Source: a bacterium (GTDB lineage Bacteria > Patescibacteriota > Minisyncoccia > Phycocordibacterales > Phycocordibacteraceae). From it: a stretch of 64,000 nt of DNA. A program made the translations under genes and the position numbers. Below the pieces are notes generated by a model that saw nothing but the letters and a program-made list of their open reading frames with translations, did no database searches and was not told where the DNA came from. Shown in pieces: positions 44,177-58,444 of the stretch; positions within the stretch are counted from its first letter, which is position 1, and every line of letters begins with the position of its first letter. Location: positions 192,001-256,000 of the forward strand of contig JBBCGK010000001.1 of the NCBI GenBank assembly GCA_037200965.1. Direction: 5' to 3'.

Positions 44177-44329
44177 ATGTCTCTCGACTACAGCCAGAAG
44201 CGCCTGGTCTCCGCCCCGTTTCGCCGGAAAGGGAAGGGGAGCCAGCGCCTTCGCCTCTACGCCTTCCTTACGGGCCTTCTGAGCACTCTGGTTTCGCTTG
44301 CGACCGTCATAGTTACGCTTGAAAAATAG
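44177..44329 (+). CDS. Small (50 aa) single-TM protein, paralogue 1
   Basis: MSLDYSQKRLVSAPFRRKGKGSQRLRLYAFLTGLLSTLVSLATVIVTLEK. Below the ORF-track size cutoff. Confidence 0.4.
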   Translation: MSLDYSQKRLVSAPFRRKGKGSQRLRLYAFLTGLLSTLVSLATVIVTLEK

Positions 44330-44382
44330 CGAACTGTGGACAAACAGACCTTGGGGCTCTGCGCACGCTATTCTTATAAGAT

Positions 44383-44517
44383 ATGAGCACCAAACACGGA
44401 CACCGCAAGCATTTTTCGTTCATGCGGAATCTCGAGGTCTATGCGTTCTGGACGGGCTTCGCGAGTACGCTCATAAGCCTCGTGCAGGTCGTTATTATCG
44501 CGAGCAACAAGGGATAG
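44383..44517 (+). CDS. Small (44 aa) single-TM protein, paralogue 2
   Basis: MSTKHGHRKHFSFMRNLEVYAFWTGFASTLISLVQVVIIASNKG. Shares the YAF(L/W)TG..STL(V/I)SL core with paralogue 1. Confidence 0.4.
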   Translation: MSTKHGHRKHFSFMRNLEVYAFWTGFASTLISLVQVVIIASNKG

Positions 44518-44524
44518 GCCCGTA

Positions 44525-44716
44525 TTGACAAATATCAATAGGTGCTCTAAGGTTCTATCCAGCCCTGTCCCTTGCTTCTTTAATCTCAGGGCCAAAAGAG
44601 GAGTATGTGCCGGCACAGCAATTGAATACGGCCTCATCGCAGCGGGGATCGCAGTTGCGATCATCGCCGCGGTTCACCTCATCGGACAAGGGTGCCATGC
44701 TTGGGGCTGGTGCTAA
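44525..44716 (+). CDS. flp: Flp/Fap-family (type IVb, Tad) prepilin
   Basis: GTAIEYGLIAAGIAVAIIAAV is the Flp processing-site and hydrophobic motif. Track start is TTG. A strong RBS-ATG pair lies in the +1 frame, so the start is uncertain. Confidence 0.55.
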   Translation: MTNINRCSKVLSSPVPCFFNLRAKRGVCAGTAIEYGLIAAGIAVAIIAAVHLIGQGCHAWGWC

Positions 44717-44800
44717 CGTTCCGGGTTGAAGAACTCGCAAGGCCATCCCGCCCCCGTCGCTTCACAGCCTCGGGGGCACGCCTTTTGATACGTAGTACAA

Positions 44801-45048
44801 TGGGGAACATGGACTTCAACAAAATGCTCAAGTTGTTTTGCGAGAGCGTGAGCATCGGGTTTGCTAAGCATGGTTTCTATTTCGGCTTCGCCTCAGGCGC
44901 GAACCAGTCGGCATTTGCCGTACCTCCCGAGGTCGCCAAAGGACTGGTCGAAGGACTTGCGCAGAAGGTCGCTGAATACGAAAAAGCCTTCGGCCCCATC
45001 GACACCTCACACAACCAGGTCGGCATCCAGAGCCCGCTCGGGAGATAA
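44801..45048 (+). CDS. Hypothetical protein
   Basis: Internal start MGNMDFNKMLKLF... of ORF 44692..45048. Confidence 0.4.
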
Positions 45049-45051
45049 TTT

Positions 45052-45483
45052 TTATCTGAAGTTCGCCCACGGACAGTCCTTTGTTTCCGTACCTGGCACT
45101 AGTTCCTGCGCGCCAATTACGAGCGCGTGGTCCTTCCAGAATTCGATTGTTTCCGTTGAGTCGCGACCGTCGCCGAAAGGGAACGGGGGAGTTAGACGTC
45201 CGATATAGGTCGTGAAGATATCGTATTCGTTATCTCCCGTCTTATCCATGCGAAGTACAATAGTAGTCGCGGGGCTGGGTTCATGGCCGCGCACAAAACG
45301 GCTATACCGGTCGCGATTGGGACGCTTCGCATAAAAGATATCGTCTGCTTCCGTCGTTTCTACGCAGTCCTGAATACCGATTGCTCTTCCGAATTCTATT
45401 TCAAGGCGCGGCGACGGTCCATGCGCGACAACCTGCGGCAGCGCCTCTTTCACAAGCTCCAGGAGATCCGGAACATCCTTCAA
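45052..45483 (-). CDS. Hypothetical protein
   Basis: 143-aa ORF. No recognised family. Confidence 0.45.
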   Translation of the reverse strand: MKDVPDLLELVKEALPQVVAHGPSPRLEIEFGRAIGIQDCVETTEADDIFYAKRPNRDRYSRFVRGHEPSPATTIVLRMDKTGDNEYDIFTTYIGRLTPPFPFGDGRDSTETIEFWKDHALVIGAQELVPGTETKDCPWANFR

Positions 45484-45692
45484 TCGACCGCCTTCTGCCG
45501 TTTGGCGGCGTTCGCATAGAGGATGATGTTCTGGTGACCAAGGACGGGCACAGAAATCTTACAAGGCTATATATCTAGGGAGGCCGGAATATATATGTTT
45601 ATCGTAAAGTAAACATTGTGCGCACTATAAGGAAAACAAAGGCTTTTTAAGGAGATCTTGCCCGACTAGACATTCCCGGCTTCTCTTCCCCG

Positions 45693-45953
45693 CTAGTCGC
45701 CCCACAAAATTGCGCCTTCGGAATTTATGGTTGTGACGGATACTTTTCCGACGGCATCGGTTAGCCGCACTTCCCCGGGCAGGGGAACTTTCCCGGTCAG
45801 GGGAGCGAAGACGATCTCAGAAAAATATGAAGAAGAGAGAAGTCCCCTGCCCTCCGCGAAACATATGAGCCTGACATTGCTAGTTGGTGTTATATTGGCC
45901 TGGATTATGGGAGTCTTTTCGCCTGAGGAGTATTTCGGCGCTATCAGGAACAA
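45693..45953 (-). pseudogene. Pilin C-terminal fragment lacking the prepilin N-terminus
   Basis: C-terminus IVFAPLTGKVPLPGEVRLTDAVGKVSVTTINSEGAILWGD is about 80% identical to the C-terminus of pilin 47921..48379. The N-terminal half is unrelated and has no prepilin leader. Confidence 0.45.
45701..45820 (+). repeat. Direct repeat copy A (about 120 bp, roughly 85-90% identical to 47927..48046)
   Basis: Aligned by eye: ...ggcatcggtta(g/a)ccgcacttccccgggcagg(g)gaactttcccggtcaggggag(c/a)gaagacga... Confidence 0.7.
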
Positions 45954-46401
45954 TATACGCGGGAAACGCTACTTATACGCAACAATCAGGATATTTGCCG
46001 GTCTTGGCTCGCTGCTTATCTTTATTGGCGCGATTGTCGGAGCCTTCCATGCTTTTAACATATTTAACATACAAGTACACCAGAATAGAGTCGAGCTAGA
46101 CTCTTACTATCGCAAAACTACTGAATTAACGAGTACGGATGGCACCTATACGACGACATTTCGAATCTTTGTTCACACTCCTCCATACTGGACTCCTCCA
46201 AATCCGAAAAATCTGGAAGCAGGTTTTAACTTTTACTGGCTAGGTAACCCTCAGGCTGAATGCAGTGACCCAGCCTCAAAAGGATTCTCAGAAAAATATG
46301 CAGGCTCTTATTCATCCAGTACCAGGGAATACGAGATGACGTGCAGGACCTATAGCCCGGTTCTCGACAACGGGCGGCTGATCATGATCAGGGAAAACTA
46401 G
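45868..46401 (+). CDS. Hypothetical membrane protein (islet cargo)
   Basis: Internal start MSLTLLVGVILAWIMGVF. Low GC. Confidence 0.4.
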   Translation, partial: SLTLLVGVILAWIMGVFSPEEYFGAIRNNIRGKRYLYATIRIFAGLGSLLIFIGAIVGAFHAFNIFNIQVHQNRVELDSYYRKTTELTSTDGTYTTTFRIFVHTPPYWTPPNPKNLEAGFNFYWLGNPQAECSDPASKGFSEKYAGSYSSSTREYEMTCRTYSPVLDNGRLIMIREN

Positions 46402-46417
46402 CGATAGGCCTCCCGAT

Positions 46418-46792
46418 TTAATACCCTGATACTGATCGCTGGGCCGTTTCGTAGTCGAAATCGCATAGTCGGATATCCCCTTCATACGCAGACAAGAGCG
46501 TGGCTGGCGTGCTGTCCGGGCTCTGTGCGCGCTTGAAGGTCGCAAAGGACAGCGCTATGTCCTGGGTCATCGAATTGCAGGAGGTACCGCTGTCATCCTC
46601 CACAAGGCACCAGTACTGCATGGCAGATGTGAATTTTGCCGCGGCTTTGACCGTACAGGCACGGTAGTCATTGTCTATATGGGCCCGCTTCTGGGAGTTG
46701 GCGGTATTCACATACCAACTGATCACCAAGATGACACAGATCAGTATCGCACCGTTGAGAACAAATATCTTATGAGTATTGAACCAGTTCAT
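46418..46792 (-). CDS. Hypothetical membrane protein (islet cargo)
   Basis: Internal start MNWFNTHKIFVLNGAILICVILVISWY. Low GC. Confidence 0.4.
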   Translation of the reverse strand: MNWFNTHKIFVLNGAILICVILVISWYVNTANSQKRAHIDNDYRACTVKAAAKFTSAMQYWCLVEDDSGTSCNSMTQDIALSFATFKRAQSPDSTPATLLSAYEGDIRLCDFDYETAQRSVSGY

Positions 46793-47186
46793 AACGCAAG
46801 GTTGTTTTAGTACCAATAAACGCCCCAGAGCACCGCCCCGAATGCCAGACAACCTTGCGGGAAGCCAACACCGGGACGGTGCTTTGGGTGCAAGGTTGTC
46901 CTGTATGGGGGGTGTTCGTTATGAGCCTACTTCCCTCCCCTGGAGGGGTCAAGGGAGGGAACTGCACGGAACGAAAAAGACCGCCCGTACGGGCGGTCTT
47001 TTGCTGCGACTTATTTCCGCTTTCCCTGCTCCATCACTTTACGCTGTTCCGCATTTGCCTCCCGCAATACCTGGCGCACCACTTTAACCTTGTCGGCAGA
47101 GGATCGTGAAAAGAACGCGGAGAAGTCGTTGTCCGCATGTCCCTTTTTCGCGCCGGACGAGCCAAAAAAGCCTCTTATGAAGTTGG

Positions 47187-47933
47187 TCATATAAGTACTG
47201 TATCTAGTTCTTCCACAGAGTAGCGTCCCCTGGTAAGGCGGTCAAGTTCCACGGAACTAACGTTCAAGTGAACATCCTCAGTGCCGTCTTCATAGTCTTT
47301 TATGAGCACGTTGAGCTCGACCGCCTTGCCAAACTGCTCTTTGACGGCCACGACATTTTCACGCGCACCCTTGAAAGAACGTATGAAGACATCCCTGGAC
47401 ACATGCCGTGACTCTGTCACCTCGCGAACTTTAGTAAACTCCCAGGCCTTCACCGGATCCTGAAATACGAACCATATTTCAACTAAGCGGCTCCGGGACA
47501 GCGAACGGCTGATATTCTCCGGGGCATTTCCGTAAGCGAACGTACCATCAAGTATGCAGTTGAGGTTCTTTTCGAGGGCATAGTCGTATAAGATGTTCAC
47601 CCCTTTATTCGCGGCGCTTTGGAAGAGGTGGGCATTTGCACCTGTATATCCGTCACAGAGCATGCGTATGTCGTCCGCATCTATGCGTATCGGCATATCC
47701 TTAAACCGTCTCATAAATCCTTTTGACACCTCAGTTTTGCCCGCCCCCGGCGAACCGGCCATAAACAGCGAAACCGGCTTATTCACGGGGCGACACGCGT
47801 CGGGGTGCGCGAACTTCTCTATGATTTCTTTTCTGTGGCTCTTAACAAAAGCAATCGCATCCCGTTCAATACGAGTTTCTTCTTCGGTCATCCCGGATAT
47901 CCTAACACTCTGTAGGCCTGTCACTTTCCCCAT
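47187..47933 (-). CDS. Zeta-toxin-like P-loop kinase
   Basis: Walker A FMAGSPGAGKTEVSK in a roughly 250-aa protein with zeta-toxin/AAA_33-like layout. Low GC. Confidence 0.55.
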   Translation of the reverse strand: MGKVTGLQSVRISGMTEEETRIERDAIAFVKSHRKEIIEKFAHPDACRPVNKPVSLFMAGSPGAGKTEVSKGFMRRFKDMPIRIDADDIRMLCDGYTGANAHLFQSAANKGVNILYDYALEKNLNCILDGTFAYGNAPENISRSLSRSRLVEIWFVFQDPVKAWEFTKVREVTESRHVSRDVFIRSFKGARENVVAVKEQFGKAVELNVLIKDYEDGTEDVHLNVSSVELDRLTRGRYSVEELDTVLI

Positions 47934-48379
47934 AAAACCGCACCTTCTGAATTGATGGCTGTAATGGATATCTTCCCGGCGGCATCGGTTAACCGCACTT
48001 CCCCGGGCAGGGAAACTTTCCCGGTCAGGGGAGAGAAGACGACTTCGGCAAGTCCGGAGCGCAGGGCATCCGACTTCCCTTCCAGGATAATGTCTTCGCC
48101 CTCATGCCGTGAGAAGTAGCTGCCGCCCTCGAAAATGACGAAGCCGGAATCTCCGACGTAGACGCCATGCGCGCTGGGGCCGGTACAAACTTTCGCGGCA
48201 CACACGCCGTTAAGCGCTTGCGAGCGGGCATGCAGAAGCGCGATCCGAATCGTATCCTCGTCGTTTCTCTGAAGTGTCCTTTGATAGCTCTCGAGTCCGA
48301 CGATAAGCCCGATCGCGGAGATCGTGGCAACAAGCGCTATAACGATTAACAGTTCGACGAGCGTGAAGCCGCGAGGCAT
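47921..48379 (-). CDS. Type IV pilin / pseudopilin
   Basis: Prepilin N-terminus MPRGFTLVELLIVIALVATISAI (class III signal: G, F, E5). Confidence 0.8.
   Translation of the reverse strand: MPRGFTLVELLIVIALVATISAIGLIVGLESYQRTLQRNDEDTIRIALLHARSQALNGVCAAKVCTGPSAHGVYVGDSGFVIFEGGSYFSRHEGEDIILEGKSDALRSGLAEVVFSPLTGKVSLPGEVRLTDAAGKISITAINSEGAVLWGK
47927..48046 (+). repeat. Direct repeat copy B (pilin gene 3' end)
   Basis: See copy A. Overlaps the last ~40 codons of pilin 47921..48379. Confidence 0.7.
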
Positions 48380-48381
48380 GG

Positions 48382-49446
48382 TTAGGGCGCAAGGTTCTGT
48401 GTGATGCCGTAGATCGGCGTGATTATCGCGAGCGCGACGAATCCCACGATAAGGCCCATCACGATCATGAGTACGGGCTCGATAAGGACCGCGATGCTCT
48501 TTGAGAGTTCGTCGAGCTCTTCCTCGTAGAAGTCCGCGCAGTACAAGAGGCTTTCCGAAAGCGAGCCGGTCGATTCTCCGACCGAAAGCATCTGCGCGAG
48601 CATCGGCGGGAACAGGAGCGGCTCAAGCGCGAACGCCGCCGAAACCTTTTGTCCGGTCGACACGAACTCCGCCATCTCCCCGCATGCTTTCCGGTATGCG
48701 CCGCTCCTTGTCCCGAGCGCCGCAAGTTCGACTGCGCGCACGACGCCTACCCCGCTCCCCAAGAGCGTCCCGAGCGTACGGGCCAGGCTCGCGACCGCGT
48801 ATTCCCGAAAGAGCGTTCCCAGAAGCGGAATCCGCAGGAGCGCGCGTCCGGCCGCAAGCCTTATGGACGGCACGCGAAGCAAGAGAACCGCCGCAGCCAC
48901 AACCGCCATGAGGGCGAGCAGGATATATAGCCCATAGCGCGCGAATGACTCGCTGAGAGAAATAAGAAGCCTGGTCGAGAGCGGAAGCGCTGCATGAAAG
49001 CCCTTGAATACCGGAATGATCTTCGGAAACACGTAGAGCGCAAGCAGGGTCGTGATGCCGAGCGTCGCCGCCACGATGATCGCAGGATACAGAAGCGCTC
49101 CTATGACTTTCCTTCGGAGTGCGCGCTCCTTCTTGATCGACTGCGAAAACCGCTCAAGATGCTCCGGAAGCGACCCGCTCGTCTCCCCCACTTCGACCAG
49201 ATGTACGCCGAGATCGCCGAATACGGAGCGGAACGCGGCGAGACCCGCGGAAAGAGGGCGTCCGGCCGCGACCGTCTCCCGGAGCGTATGCAGGATATGG
49301 GATGAGGAATGCGTCCGCGCCTCTTCGCCAAGAAGCGAGAGCGCGGCGACTATCGGCACGCCCGATCGGAGCATGAGCGCGAGGCGTTTCGCGAAGAGCA
49401 TCTGCTCTTCCTTGCCGAAGAGGAGGAGATACGGCCGCTTATGCAT
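48382..49446 (-). CDS. pilC: Type IV pilus assembly platform protein PilC (GspF family)
   Basis: 354 aa, polytopic membrane protein with duplicated GspF domains. Lies between pilB and the pilin gene. Confidence 0.8.
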   Translation of the reverse strand: MHKRPYLLLFGKEEQMLFAKRLALMLRSGVPIVAALSLLGEEARTHSSSHILHTLRETVAAGRPLSAGLAAFRSVFGDLGVHLVEVGETSGSLPEHLERFSQSIKKERALRRKVIGALLYPAIIVAATLGITTLLALYVFPKIIPVFKGFHAALPLSTRLLISLSESFARYGLYILLALMAVVAAAVLLLRVPSIRLAAGRALLRIPLLGTLFREYAVASLARTLGTLLGSGVGVVRAVELAALGTRSGAYRKACGEMAEFVSTGQKVSAAFALEPLLFPPMLAQMLSVGESTGSLSESLLYCADFYEEELDELSKSIAVLIEPVLMIVMGLIVGFVALAIITPIYGITQNLAP

Positions 49447-50602
49447 GGCGCATGCGGACTACCTCCTCGATCGTTGTCACGCCCTTCCATGCCTTGCCGA
49501 ACCCGTCACGGTGCATGGGAAGCATTCCGGCGGCCGCGGAAAGCTCGCGAAGCTCGTCAAGGGATGCCTTGCGGAGCACCGCCTCGCGAAGCTCCGGCGT
49601 CATTGCAAGCACTTCGAATATCCCCGTGCGGCCGCGATACCCCGTGCCTGCGCAGCTCTCACAGCCTCTTCCCCGGAAACTCGCAGCCTCGTCCGGCAAT
49701 CCTTCCGGAGAAAAGACATGCGCGAGGCTTTCCCGCTCCGCGCTTGTGAGCTCGCGACGCTCCCGGCAGTCGGCGCATATCGTGCGCACCAGCCGCTGCG
49801 CAATTACGAGACTTACGGTCGAAGCCAGAAGATATGGCTCTACCTTCATATCGAGAAGACGCGGGATCGCCGTCGGCGCATCGTTCGTATGAAGGGTCGA
49901 AAGAAGCAGATGGCCCGTGAGTGCGACATTGGTCGCCATTCCCGCAGTCTCGATATCCCGTATCTCCCCCACCATGATGACGTCGGGATCCTGGCGAAGC
50001 ATGCTCCTGAGCCCGTTTCCGAATGTAAGGCCGGTGCGCGCGTTCGCCTGTATCTGGTTGATGCCCGGGATCGAATATTCGACCGGATCCTCGATCGTAA
50101 GGATGTTCACTTCCCTTCTATTAAGAAGAGCAATGAGCGCATAGAGAGTCGAGGTCTTTCCGCTTCCGGTCGGTCCCGTGACGAGAATCATGCCGTGAGG
50201 CCGGGCAAGCGCCGTCTTGATGAGATCCGCGTGCGCGGTGGAAAACCCGAGACTTTCAAGCGGGCCCGGTTCCCTCGGAGCAAGGAGGCGCAGGACCGCG
50301 TTCTCTCCGTAATAGGTTGGCGCGATCGATACGCGGACATCGATCTGCCCTGACCTGCCGCCAAAGACAAAACGTCCGTCCTGCGCCGCCTGGTGCTCGT
50401 CGGTACGGAGTCCCGCAAGTATCTTTACGCGCGCGATAAGCTCGCCATGGAGCGTGCTCGGGACTTCGTGAGCGTCAGCCAGTTCCCCATCCACGCGGAA
50501 ACGGACGACTAGCTTTTCCTTCTGCGGATCGAGATGTATATCTGAAGATCCGCGCGCGTGCGCGGAAGCGAGCAGCTCCTCGACCAAGGCGATCGCCGAC
50601 AT
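49439..50602 (-). CDS. pilB: Type IV pilus assembly ATPase PilB (GspE family)
   Basis: Walker A VTGPTGSGKTSTLYA, Asp box, His box, tetracysteine CADC...CESCAGTG. Confidence 0.9.
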   Translation of the reverse strand: MSAIALVEELLASAHARGSSDIHLDPQKEKLVVRFRVDGELADAHEVPSTLHGELIARVKILAGLRTDEHQAAQDGRFVFGGRSGQIDVRVSIAPTYYGENAVLRLLAPREPGPLESLGFSTAHADLIKTALARPHGMILVTGPTGSGKTSTLYALIALLNRREVNILTIEDPVEYSIPGINQIQANARTGLTFGNGLRSMLRQDPDVIMVGEIRDIETAGMATNVALTGHLLLSTLHTNDAPTAIPRLLDMKVEPYLLASTVSLVIAQRLVRTICADCRERRELTSAERESLAHVFSPEGLPDEAASFRGRGCESCAGTGYRGRTGIFEVLAMTPELREAVLRKASLDELRELSAAAGMLPMHRDGFGKAWKGVTTIEEVVRMRHA

Positions 50603-54870: not shown

Positions 54871-55764
54871 CTATCCTCCCGGAGCGCATACGCCCGAGAG
54901 CGTCTTCGCGCCCGGAACGCCGCAGCGGCTTGCGGAACATGCCCATGCGCTCATTGTCGGCGTATAGAGGCCGCAGGCGGCCTGCGTGTTGATTTTCGGA
55001 TCCTGAGCCGCACGAACGCACTGAGTATAGAGATTCTGGTCTTTAACGGAAGAGTCGCACCACCCTACCTTGCCCTGATTCCGTATGTACTGCCCCGAGC
55101 ACGGGTGCGTGAATGCGGCCGGGCAATTAAGACTGCCGAGCTTCGTCGTCGTGAGATTGATCTGCCAAAGTCCCCAAGAATAGCTCGGTCCCTTTCCCTT
55201 ATCGAGCTTGTCGGATCCGCTCGGGATCGCGGTTTGTCCGCCCGCGCTTTCGAGATTGCATACTTTCGACGCCACTTCCCCGTTTGCCGCGAAGCATGTT
55301 CCTTGGAGGCCTTGCACGCTGCAGGGGTTGTTCGCGTTTGAAGGCACCTTGCACGAACTGTTTCCCGAACTCGGCGTCGCGGAAACATTGGTCGCCGTTA
55401 CTGGTGCCCGCGGCGTGCTGAGCTCAAGACAGGCAGCCTCGCCCCCGGAAATGATCGCGTTCCACGGCCCGAACGTGCCGTTATAGAGCGCATTCATGAC
55501 CGTATTGACGATAAGCCATGCACCAAGGACGACCAGAAGACCGATTACCGTCTGCAGCACCACGGTTCGCGCCTGCTTCACGTTATCCGGACTCGCGGCG
55601 TTGGTTACGAACAGGAATCCCGCGTACACCAGCAGAAGCACGGCAAAAAAGACCGCCAGATACAGGCCGAATTTGAGAAGGTTCTGAACTACGGCGAAAA
55701 AACCGCCCCAGCCGCAGGCGCAATGCTGGCAGATCTCGGGGACGATGCTCCCGGTGAAGTCCAT
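54871..55764 (-). CDS. Membrane protein with VirB2/TrbC-like N-terminal TMs and a Cys-rich SLT-like domain
   Basis: CNLESAGGQTAI...GLWQINL resembles the ES...GLMQ motif of lytic transglycosylases. Twelve Cys in the C-terminal half. Confidence 0.45.
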   Translation of the reverse strand: MDFTGSIVPEICQHCACGWGGFFAVVQNLLKFGLYLAVFFAVLLLVYAGFLFVTNAASPDNVKQARTVVLQTVIGLLVVLGAWLIVNTVMNALYNGTFGPWNAIISGGEAACLELSTPRAPVTATNVSATPSSGNSSCKVPSNANNPCSVQGLQGTCFAANGEVASKVCNLESAGGQTAIPSGSDKLDKGKGPSYSWGLWQINLTTTKLGSLNCPAAFTHPCSGQYIRNQGKVGWCDSSVKDQNLYTQCVRAAQDPKINTQAACGLYTPTMSAWACSASRCGVPGAKTLSGVCAPGG

Positions 55765-55858: not shown

Positions 55859-56521
55859 ATGAAATTGAAAGAGAAGGAGGCCGCAATACGCCTGCGCTAC
55901 AAAGGGCATACGCTAAACGAGATAACCGCGATGCTGGGAGTCGCAAAAAGTTCCGTGTCGCTCTGGGTGAGGACGTTGGATATTTCTCCGCAGGCGCGGG
56001 AACGGATAGCGTCGCTGCAAACTACAGGACAGAAGACGGCCCGAAACAACAGATTGGCGCTGACTTCTCGCATACTTTCGGAAGCAAAAGAAGATGCGGA
56101 TGTCCTGACGAAGCGTATCAAACTGGATAAAGATTGGGCACTTGTAGTGTGCAGCCTTCTATATTGGTGCGAGGGAGAAAAGAGCCATAATGACGGCAGG
56201 TTCAGATTTTCAAATTCGGATGTCGATATAATACGGGCGTTCGTTGTGCTGTTGCGAACGGCACTTGTTCTTGATGAAAGAAAGTTCAGAATCTGCATGC
56301 ACCTTCACGAATATCATAATGAGTCAAAACTGCGATTGTTCTGGTCGGAGATAACCGGAATCCCGGAAGAGCAATTTCTTAAAACATTTTGGAAACCGCA
56401 TACCGGAAAGACCATAAAACAAGGATACCCGGGCTGCATACACATTACGTACCACGATGTACGGGTAGCGCGAAAAATATCCGCTACTGCCCGAGCGTTT
56501 CTTAAAAGCATGGTACAATGA
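55859..56521 (+). CDS. HTH-domain protein, possible LAGLIDADG-type homing endonuclease
   Basis: N-terminal HTH ITAMLGVAKSSVSLWVR. LLYWCEGEKS resembles a degenerate LAGLIDADG block. Lower GC. Immediately upstream of tRNA-Trp. Confidence 0.4.
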   Translation: MKLKEKEAAIRLRYKGHTLNEITAMLGVAKSSVSLWVRTLDISPQARERIASLQTTGQKTARNNRLALTSRILSEAKEDADVLTKRIKLDKDWALVVCSLLYWCEGEKSHNDGRFRFSNSDVDIIRAFVVLLRTALVLDERKFRICMHLHEYHNESKLRLFWSEITGIPEEQFLKTFWKPHTGKTIKQGYPGCIHITYHDVRVARKISATARAFLKSMVQ

Positions 56522-56528
56522 TGGATAC

Positions 56529-56600
56529 GGGTCCATAGTTTCAATGGTAAAACGCTTCTCTCCAAAAGAAGTATTGCTGGTTCGAGTCCAGCTGGGCCCG
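56529..56600 (+). tRNA. tRNA-Trp (anticodon CCA)
   Basis: Manual fold: acceptor GGGUCCA/UGGGCCC (one G-U), D-arm GUUU-CAAUGGUA-AAAC, anticodon stem CUUCU/AGAAG with loop CUCCAAA, T-arm GCUGG-UUCGAGU-CCAGC, discriminator G. Confidence 0.8.
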
Positions 56601-56622
56601 CTAAAAGTGATACACTGAGCGC

Positions 56623-57024
56623 ATGGAAACTATTGCCGTACGTCTTACCGATGGGCAAGATTTACTGGTGGAAATCAAGGACGTAACCTTTAAACAGGAT
56701 ATCGAAGCGGGCGTTATTCTTTCCGGAGTCGGAAGTTTGAAGAAAGCGAAAATCCGTGTTCCGGTGATAAACGGTGAAGTAAAGTACATCGAACCACAGA
56801 ACCTAGAGATCGATGCGCTGCATGGAACAGTGTCAAAAAACGGTTGTCATGTGCATATTACTGTTTCTGATATTTCAGGAAACGCCTATGGAGGGCATAT
56901 AAAGGAAGGGTGTATCGTCCGGACTACATGCGAACTGGTGATAGGAATAGTGAAGAACACCCGCTTTAAGCGCACACTAGATCCCGCTACCGGATTTGAA
57001 GAGCTCGTAATCGAAACCGCTTAA
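56623..57024 (+). CDS. PPC/DUF296 domain protein
   Basis: GQDLLVEIKDVTFKQDIEAGVILSGVGSL...HVHITVSD...GHIKEGCIVRTTCELVIG matches the DUF296 pattern. Confidence 0.7.
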   Translation: METIAVRLTDGQDLLVEIKDVTFKQDIEAGVILSGVGSLKKAKIRVPVINGEVKYIEPQNLEIDALHGTVSKNGCHVHITVSDISGNAYGGHIKEGCIVRTTCELVIGIVKNTRFKRTLDPATGFEELVIETA

Positions 57025-58090
57025 ACCCCTCTTGTCCGAAACCAGAAATCATTCTTTATCTCTTCCGTAAGGCGATACGCATCGGCGTGGGAGAGGACGC
57101 CAAGATATGAATTAAAAGATGAAAGGACAGTTGTTTCACTTGTATTGCCTGTCCTAAATTCCGCTGCACGCTTCCGAAGCTTCCGGATGATTCTCTGTTT
57201 TGTCTTCCGGCGTAGGGCGATATGCCCGGGCAATACGACGTATCCGAGGAAGTCGATCCCTTGTCGATACGTGCGGATAAAGACTTTATCAGGATGAAGG
57301 GAGAGGTGAAGTCGTTCTTCAAGAAACGTGCCAATTTCGGGAATCAGACTCTCAAGATACGAACGGTCTCCTGACACGATTACGAAATCATCCGTATATC
57401 GCATATAATGTTTGACCCTAAGCCCATGCTTTATAAATTGGTCGAGCTCGTTCATATACACGTTGGCGAAAAGCTGGCTCGTAAGATTGCCGATCGGCAC
57501 TCCGTTCCTTGGCGTATCGTCCCCCCCCCCCCCCCCCCATTCAATCCGGCCGTATAGCTTTCGATAACTTCTTCGAGAAGCCAGAGAACTTCCGGATCGG
57601 CGATTTTCTTTCTGAGAATGCCGAGCAGTACCGCGTGATTGATGGTGTCGAAAAACTTCCGTACGTCGCACTTCAAGGCGAAACAAGGCCGCGTCCCGTT
57701 CGCACTTACCGCACGCAGCGAATGCTTCAAATATTCGACGCCTTTGTGCGTGCCCTTTCCTATCCGGCAGGAAAAAGAGGACGCTATAAAGGTCGGCTCG
57801 AAAACCGGATTGAGTATCTTAAAAATCGCATGGTGGAGTACGCGGTCGCGTACCGTCGCCTTATGTATGCGCCGTATCTTTGGGTCGCGGATCCAAAAAC
57901 CCCGGTACGGCCCGTGGCGGTAATACTTGCCGCGCAGCTCCCGAGCAAGTTTGAAAAGTTCATACTCGACGTTTTGCTCGAAAGCCGCCACGTCCGGTTT
58001 GCCGCGCTTATCGCGCTTAAAGATATCCCACGCCTCGAACAGGTTTTCTGGCGAGGTTATCGATCCGTATAAGTCCTTATATACCTTCAT
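57021..58090 (-). CDS. Diversity-generating retroelement reverse transcriptase, interrupted by a frameshift at a C18 homopolymer
   Basis: N-terminal ORF 57452..58090 carries RT motifs 1-3 (KIRRIHKATVRDRVLHHAI; FALKCDVRKFFDTINH). C-terminal ORF 57021..57686 carries GVPIGNLTSQLFANVYM (the DGR-specific IGxxxSQ motif) and YMRYTDDFVIV (YxDD). The two frames meet at the poly-C run 57521-57538. Confidence 0.75.
57521..57538. repeat. C18 homopolymeric tract (G18 on the coding strand) inside the RT gene
   Basis: Seen directly in the sequence. A change of one nucleotide in tract length would fuse the two RT ORFs. Confidence 0.9.
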
Positions 58091-58444
58091 ATGAATAGTG
58101 ACCTAGACATACCGATTTTCAAGAAGAGTTACGACCTGTATAAGATGTTCTACGGCTACCGCGCCGACGTGTCGAAGCAGGATCGATACACGATCTGGCA
58201 GCGTTCGGAGAATTCCATCCTCGACATCGTCGAGGCGATTCTGCTTGCAAGCCAGTCAAGTAAAGCGGAGAAACTTCCGATACTTGAGGGGGCGAGCGTG
58301 AAGCTCAACCTGGTACGGATTCTGGTTCGACTCACGAAGGACGTGAAAGCCATCGATAACAAGAAATACCTTGCGCTTGAAGCGAACGTTGACGAGATCG
58401 GCAGGATGCTTGGCGGATGGATCCGTTCGGCCAAGGAACGGTAG
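58091..58444 (+). CDS. avd: DGR accessory variability determinant (Avd; four-helix-bundle family)
   Basis: 117 aa. The C-terminus VDEIGRMLGGWIRSAKER parallels the bAvd C-terminus (VGRILGSWIARVNRK). The KKSYDLYKMFYGY...LDIVEAILLAS four-helix pattern is present. Start codon abuts the RT start codon on the opposite strand. Confidence 0.7.
   Translation: MNSDLDIPIFKKSYDLYKMFYGYRADVSKQDRYTIWQRSENSILDIVEAILLASQSSKAEKLPILEGASVKLNLVRILVRLTKDVKAIDNKKYLALEANVDEIGRMLGGWIRSAKER

Follow-up and report, generated by a model that had tools for sequence, protein, structure and literature searches.

In Escherichia coli, the icd gene extends into the prophage e14, and a C-terminal pseudogene, icdC, lies at the far end of the element (PMC13626634); recombination between the two copies yields a chimeric gene with a few conservative substitutions (PMC13626634; Hill et al. 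1989, cited there). The direct repeats of the MccH47 (microcin H47) island are long and imperfect; the island encodes no recombinase, moves with the help of functions provided in trans and forms its hybrid att sites where the repeats are identical (PMC3191183), while cis-mobilizable elements (CIMEs) are decayed elements that retain attL and attR (PMC5704250). Here we analyze a small islet that lies behind a type IV pilin gene in a 64-kb stretch of a Patescibacteriota genome (contig JBBCGK010000001.1, positions 192,001 to 256,000; hereafter "the window") and is flanked by two copies of the pilin gene's 3' end: copy B, the in-frame end of the expressed pilin gene, and copy A, at the far side of the islet. 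On balance, we read this arrangement as a 2228-bp unit of foreign DNA that was probably joined to the chromosome by a single-crossover (Campbell-type) insertion within the last ~130 nt of the pilin gene. The islet would then represent a known style of integration, the surrogate 3' end of the e14/icd type, at a new target.

The resemblance to these systems is partial. Like e14 (and phage 21) at icd, the islet lies in the 3' end of a protein-coding gene, apparently supplying a slightly different surrogate end with which the gene can still function, and displacing the native one. Repeats of the target's 3' end are present, and a displaced native end and an empty site were found (the latter in one relative, from a different species), but the islet has no integrase of its own. 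Furthermore, e14 is 15 kb long, carries its own SOS-induced site-specific recombination system and has been observed to excise, whereas the islet is 2.2 kb long, lacks a recombinase, has a pilin gene as its target in a Patescibacteria-type genome, and is mobile by inference only. The MccH47 island shares with the islet its small size, long imperfect repeats and lack of a recombinase, but it is 13 kb long, has microcin cargo, and its excision and integration have been shown experimentally to proceed without homologous recombination; the islet, by contrast, has repeats that are the coding end of its target gene and is known from sequence alone. Attachment-like repeats (attL and attR) with a shared 33-bp dyad-symmetric core and a missing recombinase are CIME-like traits. 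However, CIMEs are defined by descent from integrative and conjugative (ICE) or integrative and mobilizable (IME) elements and are mobilised when a related element integrates alongside, while no autonomous relative of the islet is known.

The two copies form an ungapped direct repeat of 124 nt (45700-45823 and 47928-48051) at an offset of 2228 nt, with 104/124 positions identical (84%) and exact matches of up to 20 nt. Beyond the repeat, sequences compared at this offset agree no better than background (0-12 per 30), and similarity between the copies is bounded by their stop codons (TAG, 45693-45695; TGA, 47921-47923) and by about 45823-45854. A tblastn search of the 64-kb window with the pilin C-terminus returned a sole second site at 45699-45830 (E = 2e-20, 75% over 44 aa), the next best matches having E near 1. 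A same-orientation repeat of ~120 bp had been noticed in the first-pass annotation, which put its identity by eye at 85-90% and called for a comparison of the window with itself; that comparison recovers the repeat, at an identity well above the background around it.

Divergence between the copies carries the signature of working genes. In the pilin frame they differ at 30 positions (including the stop codon and a few bases just upstream of the repeat), distributed 12/3/15 over the three codon positions, and the amino-acid changes are conservative (I/V, A/S, A/T). Nei-Gojobori estimates give a synonymous divergence (dS) of 0.45 and a nonsynonymous divergence (dN) of 0.14. The resulting ratio of 0.31 indicates that most of the divergence arose while both copies were working pilin ends, and rules out decay following an identical duplication. 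As judged from these substitutions, the divergence could have arisen either in two genomes (host and donor) or as two genes within one genome.

Relatives of the locus were reached through homologues of PilC, which yielded three syntenic contigs: L013, the closest relative found (PilC 73% identical), and L015 and L017 (about 70%). The gene order in L013 (IPT, AhpC, ParB, PilB, PilC, pilin, an 83/100-aa open reading frame (ORF), a DUF3467-like gene and a P-type ATPase gene, both on the minus strand, a 50-aa ORF, LOG, RNase_T, L27, L9, S41 and CorA) matches the frame of the window. Only one pilin 3' end exists in L013, and the kinase, partner and transmembrane (TM) protein genes of the islet are absent after it. 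In L015, L017 and the P0002 contig, the pilin gene is followed by a gene for a ~480-aa LVIVD-like protein and then by a second, unrelated pilin gene; further on, L015 carries an orthologue of the window's 143-aa ORF (45052-45483) and a DUF3467-like gene. Islet genes were absent from L013, L015 and L017, all three of the relatives with readable DNA after the pilin gene, and are evidently not conserved content of this lineage. The first-pass annotation had proposed a search of relatives for an empty site, and the syntenic L013 shows the corresponding one; the finding that would have spoken against an insertion, islet genes held by relatives as conserved core, did not appear in any of the three contigs. 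As a separate observation, a contig assembled from another dataset (L019 2002-2349; Logan SRR11476867; PilC 73% identical) ends at ...GLTEVAFSP, exactly where the window's repeat starts, which may reflect an assembly break at a repeated pilin 3' end there too.

Comparison with L013 also suggests which of the two copies is native. We placed the 3' end of the L013 pilin gene in a three-way alignment with copies A and B, in the coding direction (nt 1 = 48051 in B and 45823 in A), and scored the sites at which A and B differ and L013 matches one of them. Up to nt 77, L013 sides with B at 6 sites and with A at 1; from nt 80 onward it sides with B at 4 and with A at 18, stop codon TAG included. This switch in allegiance is significant by Fisher's test (p = 0.0026) and by a best-breakpoint (max-chi-square) permutation (p = 0.011). 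In the last third of the repeat, A is 79% and B 51% identical to L013, and the last ~50 nt of copy B are foreign relative to L013. The flank behaves in the same way: the ~95 nt downstream of copy A align locally with L013 at a score of 21 versus a shuffle mean of 10.8 (z = 6.8, 0/300), whereas the control, DNA downstream of copy B, gives z = -1.2. Taken together, the site switch and the flank alignment indicate that copy A and its flank are the native pilin end, and that the islet brought the end that the gene has today. The 5' part of the pilin gene is collinear with the pilins of L013 and L017.

Between the two regions of opposite allegiance, the copies are nearly the same. In the middle third of the repeat, A and B are 82% identical and each is only 60% identical to L013; over a central stretch of 54 nt (nt 19-72), A and B differ at 2 positions (96% identical) and both are ~60% identical to L013. 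A 33-bp dyad-symmetric sequence sits in this part of the repeat, which is without informative sites and where the crossover must be. Its arms, separated by a 1-nt spacer, are complementary at 13/16 positions in copy B (matched by 4/1000 shuffles) and at 12/16 in copy A (24/1000), and the dyad is not present at the corresponding place in L013 and L017. Its symmetry and position make it a candidate crossover or recombinase site.

The islet is also compositionally foreign. GC content averages 58.6% over the window but 50.3% between the repeats, a value that just 2.3% of 2.1-kb windows reach or undercut; this agrees with the low-GC islet described at first pass. GC at third codon positions (GC3) is 0.50-0.65 in the four islet genes, 0.65 in the pilin gene and 0.68-0.77 in the conserved neighbours pilB, pilC, parB, LOG and the RNase_T-like gene.

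These observations could be accounted for by one reciprocal crossover between the chromosomal pilin gene and a circular molecule bearing the pilin 3' fragment of a related organism. The inserted unit would begin at some position in copy B and end at the matching position in copy A, with the crossover most plausibly placed in the 54-nt central stretch that holds the dyad. Read from the pilin gene, the product would consist of the host 5' part, the crossover, the donor 3' end, the kinase, its partner, a terminator, the 124-aa TM protein and the 178-aa TM protein (in reverse), and would continue with the donor's 5' edge of the fragment, the crossover, the host 3' end and the host flank. Copy B, borne by the islet, would act as a surrogate 3' end that keeps the pilin ORF intact, leaving copy A as a displaced, dead fragment. 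The exchange would have replaced the C-terminal ~18 residues of the pilin, with 6 substitutions (GKVSVTTINSEGAILWGD to GKISITAINSEGAVLWGK). Since no terminator or promoter was predicted between the pilin gene and the kinase gene, the kinase and its partner are probably co-transcribed with the pilin operon, by what would be read-through from pilB-pilC-pilin.

How the crossover was catalysed is less constrained. No recombinase domain was found in islet ORFs with Pfam, PHROGs, PADLOC or NCBIfam, and the islet has no room to encode one; Pfam annotations likewise revealed no recombinase in the 20 kb around the site. With none encoded in the islet, catalysis would have been provided in trans, whether through a recombinase of the host or of a helper or, following DNA uptake, through RecA-type homologous recombination. 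The first-pass annotation had interpreted the repeats as an att-site duplication arising from site-specific integration. An att-like duplication at the pilin 3' end is supported by the empty site in L013 and by the native character of copy A, but site specificity is only one possibility, as homologous single-crossover integration fits equally well. It is also possible that the history ran in reverse, with an ancestral islet excised in the L013 lineage through its repeats, which would leave both the unit and the mechanism unchanged; gain in the lineage of the window is favoured because the outgroups are without the islet and its composition is foreign.

Several observations weigh against a single-crossover insertion of a mobile unit. 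Integrase, excisionase and transfer genes are absent from the islet, and, at 84% identity and no more than 20 nt of uninterrupted match, the repeats are less alike than efficient homologous recombination would favour. Polarity was assigned against a single relative, L013, which is a different species (pilin 62% and PilC 73% identical), and the more distant outgroup L017 is without a clear switch (1 B vs 4 A in the 5' part, 5 B vs 7 A in the 3' part). A same-species empty site, a circular form and a second pilin-targeted islet were not found in scans that are poor for this rare lineage. Elsewhere, the kinase and its partner follow gyrB (L007) or pth (L010) without displaced gene ends, and the kinase may be a housekeeping enzyme rather than an addiction toxin, since its family is 60-68% identical across many Patescibacteria. 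With regard to the scans, identical-protein look-ups for the pilin and the kinase returned the same organism only; the pilin protein search found only 2 relatives and missed the L013 pilin, its index being not exhaustive for the lineage; a PilC search of genome contigs gave only distant homologues (27-32% identity) from Acidobacteria and Proteobacteria; and a metagenome contig scan with a 3-sequence alignment gave one distant pilin (L018, 37% identity), which is without the repeat.

Pilin genes are often duplicated in tandem, and the alternative that survives best, though we consider it unlikely, is that copy A is the remnant of a tandem paralogue. The ancestor would have carried gene B followed by gene A, foreign DNA would have replaced the spacer and the first ~107 codons of A, and the L013 pilin would be a B/A hybrid produced by unequal recombination; the repeat would thus predate the islet and would not be an att-type duplication. 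Such a history also accounts for the mosaic pattern against L013, and a dN/dS of 0.31 fits two once-functional genes. The LOG-pilin region is moreover a variable hotspot, in which the ATPase of L013 and L015 is absent from the window and a Flp-like ORF is present. However, no tandem copy of this pilin gene was found in L013, L015 or L017 (by repeat search, the L017 C-termini by eye) or in the P0002 contig (by gene calls only), and the rest of gene A has left no trace in the window. A paralogue also requires at least three events (duplication, replacement, and deletion in L013) in place of one, and can account for the central 54 nt, where A and B are 96% identical to each other but only ~60% identical to L013, only if a patch of gene conversion is invoked as well.

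A functional role, as a silent cassette resembling Neisseria pilS, was the alternative offered at first pass: copy A would be a promoterless donor for conversion of the pilin C-terminus, generating antigenic or receptor variation. As at pilE/pilS, a promoterless pilin fragment without an N-terminus lies near an expressed pilin gene, here 2.2 kb away, in the same orientation and in frame, and the near-identical central stretch could reflect past conversion. We nevertheless find a silent cassette very unlikely. The 64-kb window contains one fragment only, comprising the last 43 codons; the differences are conservative and dN/dS (0.31) is not diversifying; no G-quadruplex (G4) motif ((G3+N1-7)x3 G3+) occurs on either strand of 45000-49000; and both copies are identical between two assemblies. 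Furthermore, copy A lies where the native 3' end and its flank are expected, and this native position explains its presence without invoking a function.

Equally improbable is the idea that copy A belongs to a real gene, either an 86-aa ORF (45693-45953, minus strand) or a 224-aa ORF (45727-46401, plus strand) with the antisense repeat as its N-terminus. Both frames are open, and gene callers annotated the 224-aa form, which runs antisense through copy A, in both assemblies. As the first-pass annotation had stated, the 86-aa ORF joins a pilin-like C-terminus to an unrelated, leaderless N-terminus. Hydropathy detects no hydrophobic segment in that N-terminus, and the DNA behind its first 44 aa encodes, on the opposite strand, the start of the conserved 178-aa protein; this N-terminus is probably non-coding, and the ORF is best read, from its make-up, as a pilin fragment of 43-52 codons and not as a gene. 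On the plus strand, homologues of the longer protein are mostly 160-180 aa and align with the 178-aa form, which supports a start at 45865, and 12/30 of the A/B differences fall at second codon positions. The plus frame is open at copy B as well (47952-48119), because the third codon positions of the two frames coincide. The 224-aa call is thus probably too long by 46 codons.

Assembly error, as a chimeric join or a mis-resolved repeat, is extremely improbable: although the window comes from a metagenome-assembled genome (MAG) and the related short contig L019 ends exactly at the repeat's start, L005, a separate accession, has the same sequence over the whole islet, the 20 positions that differ between the copies make a collapse or mis-join unlikely, and reading frames and gene overlaps are coherent. 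Window positions 37921-58379 are identical to locus L004 (MAG GCA_037975565.1, JBBCBH010010897.1, a 960-kb contig), and L005 (a 12.5-kb contig of a second assembly of the same organism, GCA_015655515.1) is 99.94% identical to the window, with an identical islet structure. All 8 L005 mismatches lie at that contig's own end (44961-51), so the whole islet was independently reproduced.

The pilin gene ends a run of minus-strand genes encoding ParB (50640-), PilB/T2SSE (49439-50602) and PilC/T2SSF (48382-49446). Its prepilin cleavage/methylation motif (PF07963, 26.7 bits; TIGR02532, 30.1 bits) and the adjacent T2SSE and T2SSF genes identify its predicted product as a type IV pilin. The kinase gene follows on the same strand, and beyond it lie the 59-aa ORF, the terminator and the gene for the 124-aa membrane protein, then the plus-strand gene for the 178-aa membrane protein and the pilin-like fragment (Table 1). 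The named sources of PilC and kinase homologues are Kaiserbacteria, Paceibacterota, Ryanbacteria, Pacebacteria and "Patescibacteria group", which points to a bacterium of the Patescibacteria/CPR type. An Rfam scan of the window returned three tRNAs only.

Table 1. Features of the pilin locus and the islet (window coordinates; aa, amino acids)
Feature	Position	Strand	Description
Type IV pilin gene, 152 aa	47921..48379	-	Last of the pilB-pilC-pilin run; N_methyl / IV_pilin_GFxxxE motif
Repeat copy B (attL-like)	47921..48051	-	In-frame 3' end and stop codon of the expressed pilin gene; 5' part host-like
Dyad-symmetric core, 33 bp, TCCCCGGGCAGGGAAACTTTCCCGGTCAGGGGA	48000..48032 (B), 45772-45804 (A)		Candidate crossover/recombinase site
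Zeta-toxin-family P-loop kinase gene, 234 aa	47187..47891	-	Pfam PF06414; starts 29 nt past the pilin stop
Kinase partner gene, 59 aa	47011..47190	-	Overlaps the kinase stop by ATGA
Strong bidirectional intrinsic terminator hairpin (predicted)	46974..47002		-23.7 kcal/mol, z = -5.1, 0/200 shuffles; followed by a U-run
Cargo gene, 124 aa	46418..46792	-	One N-terminal TM helix and a Cys-containing domain (ORF and hydropathy)
Cargo gene, 178 aa	45865..46401	+	Two TM helices and a Cys-containing C-domain; lowest GC in the islet (45%)
Repeat copy A (attR-like)	45693..45823	-	Displaced native pilin 3' end, stop TAG; promoterless, without N-terminus
Native DNA downstream of pilin	45598..45692	-	Conserved with DNA past the L013 pilin stop codon

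The islet kinase bears out, at the level of Pfam, the zeta-toxin label it received at first pass (PF06414, E = 1e-29, 103.9 bits against a cut-off of 22.3), and it contains a Walker A motif (GSPGAGKT). PHROGs gave a weak match only (phrog_25145, E = 1.9e-05, function unknown), and the kinase sequence matched nothing in PDB or PADLOC. There are 519 homologues at E <= 1e-10, the best of them 60-68% identical, and the 234-aa family is widespread and highly conserved in Patescibacteria. Most of the 120 homologues listed, whose sources include Ryanbacteria, Pacebacteria and Patescibacteria, are 232-235 aa long and begin MTEEE or MTDEE; for this reason the kinase most likely starts at 47891 and not at the overlapping ATG at 47933, the called gene probably being 14 codons too long. 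Together with the 46 excess codons of the 224-aa call, this start is a lesson for annotation. Thus the gene content given at first pass holds for the zeta-like gene, the two small membrane proteins and the lack of an integrase, but the kinase start was most likely misplaced and the conserved 59-aa gene was overlooked.

In the loci compared, the kinase gene is always accompanied by a downstream gene for a ~60-aa partner and never by an upstream epsilon antitoxin gene. Partner homologues in the same position, also overlapping the kinase gene, are 64 aa (L007), 66 aa (L010) and 62 aa (P0008 contig) long. In the window, the pilin gene occupies the place upstream of the kinase and no epsilon/PezA-type antitoxin lies there, while the 59-aa ORF has no family match in Pfam, PHROGs, PADLOC or NCBIfam. 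Kinase and partner (window 47011-47891; L007 6001-6896; L010 6001-6902) form a conserved two-gene module found widely in Patescibacteria, where it usually comes immediately behind the final gene of a housekeeping operon (gyrB, pth) and precedes a hairpin. In other genomes, the module follows gyrB (L007), pth (L010) or a restriction-modification system. We considered whether the module generally makes target-end duplications and rejected this: there are no displaced gyrB (L007) or pth (L010) ends, and target-end duplication is thus not a general property of the module. No literature linking "zeta toxin" with "candidate phyla radiation" was found, and the module appears to be undescribed so far.

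As in epsilon/zeta and PezAT, the islet kinase has a Zeta_toxin match, a Walker A motif and a small overlapping gene, and is located on inserted DNA; unlike in those systems, its partner is downstream and, by family search, unrelated to epsilon or PezA, and its family is widely conserved. By analogy with zeta-family pairs on plasmids and islands, kinase and partner may act as a retention (addiction) module. The downstream position of the partner and its lack of relationship to epsilon make this role uncertain, as do the wide conservation of the family and the occurrence of the module elsewhere without duplication. The hairpin that follows was missed by a consensus promoter/terminator scan and confirmed by folding; it is predicted to close a pilin-kinase-partner transcription unit.

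Neither TM protein has a family match in PHROGs, PADLOC or NCBIfam, nor does the 59-aa partner, and the 124-aa TM protein has none in Pfam. Viral contigs contained no relatives of either TM protein and no copy of the 20-nt repeat core, and the islet DNA had no match in plasmid and phage collections. Homologues of the 178-aa protein comprise 21 cluster representatives among 1.84 billion proteins. This protein is modular: its N-terminal two-TM module is common to P0250 and P0255, which carry other C-domains, and its Cys-containing C-domain is common to ~165-aa proteins (P0245, 51% identical). These ~165-aa relatives (P0245; loci L020-L023) come after a beta-lactamase-family gene in other genomes, with neither pilin nor kinase nearby.

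The surroundings of the islet hold further variation. The whole stretch between LOG and the pilin gene (window 44200-45700; L013 6100-9700; L015 6300-8301) is a hotspot of variation: L013 and L015 have a P-type cation ATPase that the window lacks, and a 143/170-aa protein (window 45052-45483; PHROG 23674, E = 8e-14) is shared by the window and L015 and absent from L013. Within this stretch, a small plus-strand ORF (44525-44716) has a Flp/Fap pilin motif (...GTAIEYGLIAAGIAVAIIAAV...; PF04964, 38.2 bits, cut-off 32.2). Two paralogous tiny hydrophobic plus-strand ORFs of 50 and 44 aa (44177-44329, ...RLYAFLTGLLSTLVSLATVIV...; 44383-44517, ...EVYAFWTGFASTLISLVQVVII...) lie beside the LOG-family gene, where L013 has a 50-aa ORF at the same position. 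Farther away, a 297-aa minus-strand ORF (54871-55764) gives a weak T4SS_pilin match (PF18895, E = 1e-4, below cut-off), and P0131, a contig from a relative, carries a pair of T4SS_pilin genes close to the same IPT-ParB-PilB-PilC block. Elements reminiscent of a diversity-generating retroelement lie at 57021-58444 and fall in the window's lowest-GC 2.1 kb (about 56100-58200). They consist of a bAvd-like gene (58091-58444, plus strand; PF22296, E = 5e-16) and a divergently oriented reverse transcriptase gene that is split over two overlapping minus-strand ORFs (57452-58090 and 57021-57686) and may be frameshifted.

In Patescibacteria (candidate phyla radiation bacteria), type IV pili are believed to have a central part in attaching to hosts and taking up DNA; to our knowledge, integrative elements in these bacteria are poorly documented. 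The locus provides a concrete, bounded case in which foreign DNA was apparently joined into a pilin gene without destroying it. The insertion would change the pilin's C-terminal residues and place a zeta-type kinase module under the pilin operon. A far bolder proposal, which we regard as quite doubtful, is that the islet exemplifies a class of tiny, recombinase-less elements in Patescibacteria that enter by pilus-mediated DNA uptake, cross over in the dyad core at the pilin 3' end, swap exposed C-terminal residues, ride on pilin-operon transcription and are held by zeta-kinase/partner addiction, making the pilin gene a dedicated hotspot. If such a class exists, the C-terminal swap would alter attachment, DNA-uptake or phage-receptor properties, and pilin genes would play, in reduced genomes, the role of integration hotspot that tRNA genes play elsewhere. 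More modestly, if further examples or excision products exist, pilin 3' ends would constitute a new class of integration target, with the 33-bp dyad as a candidate site for a recombinase acting in trans; otherwise, the islet would be a tidy instance of the known e14/icd-type surrogate 3' end.

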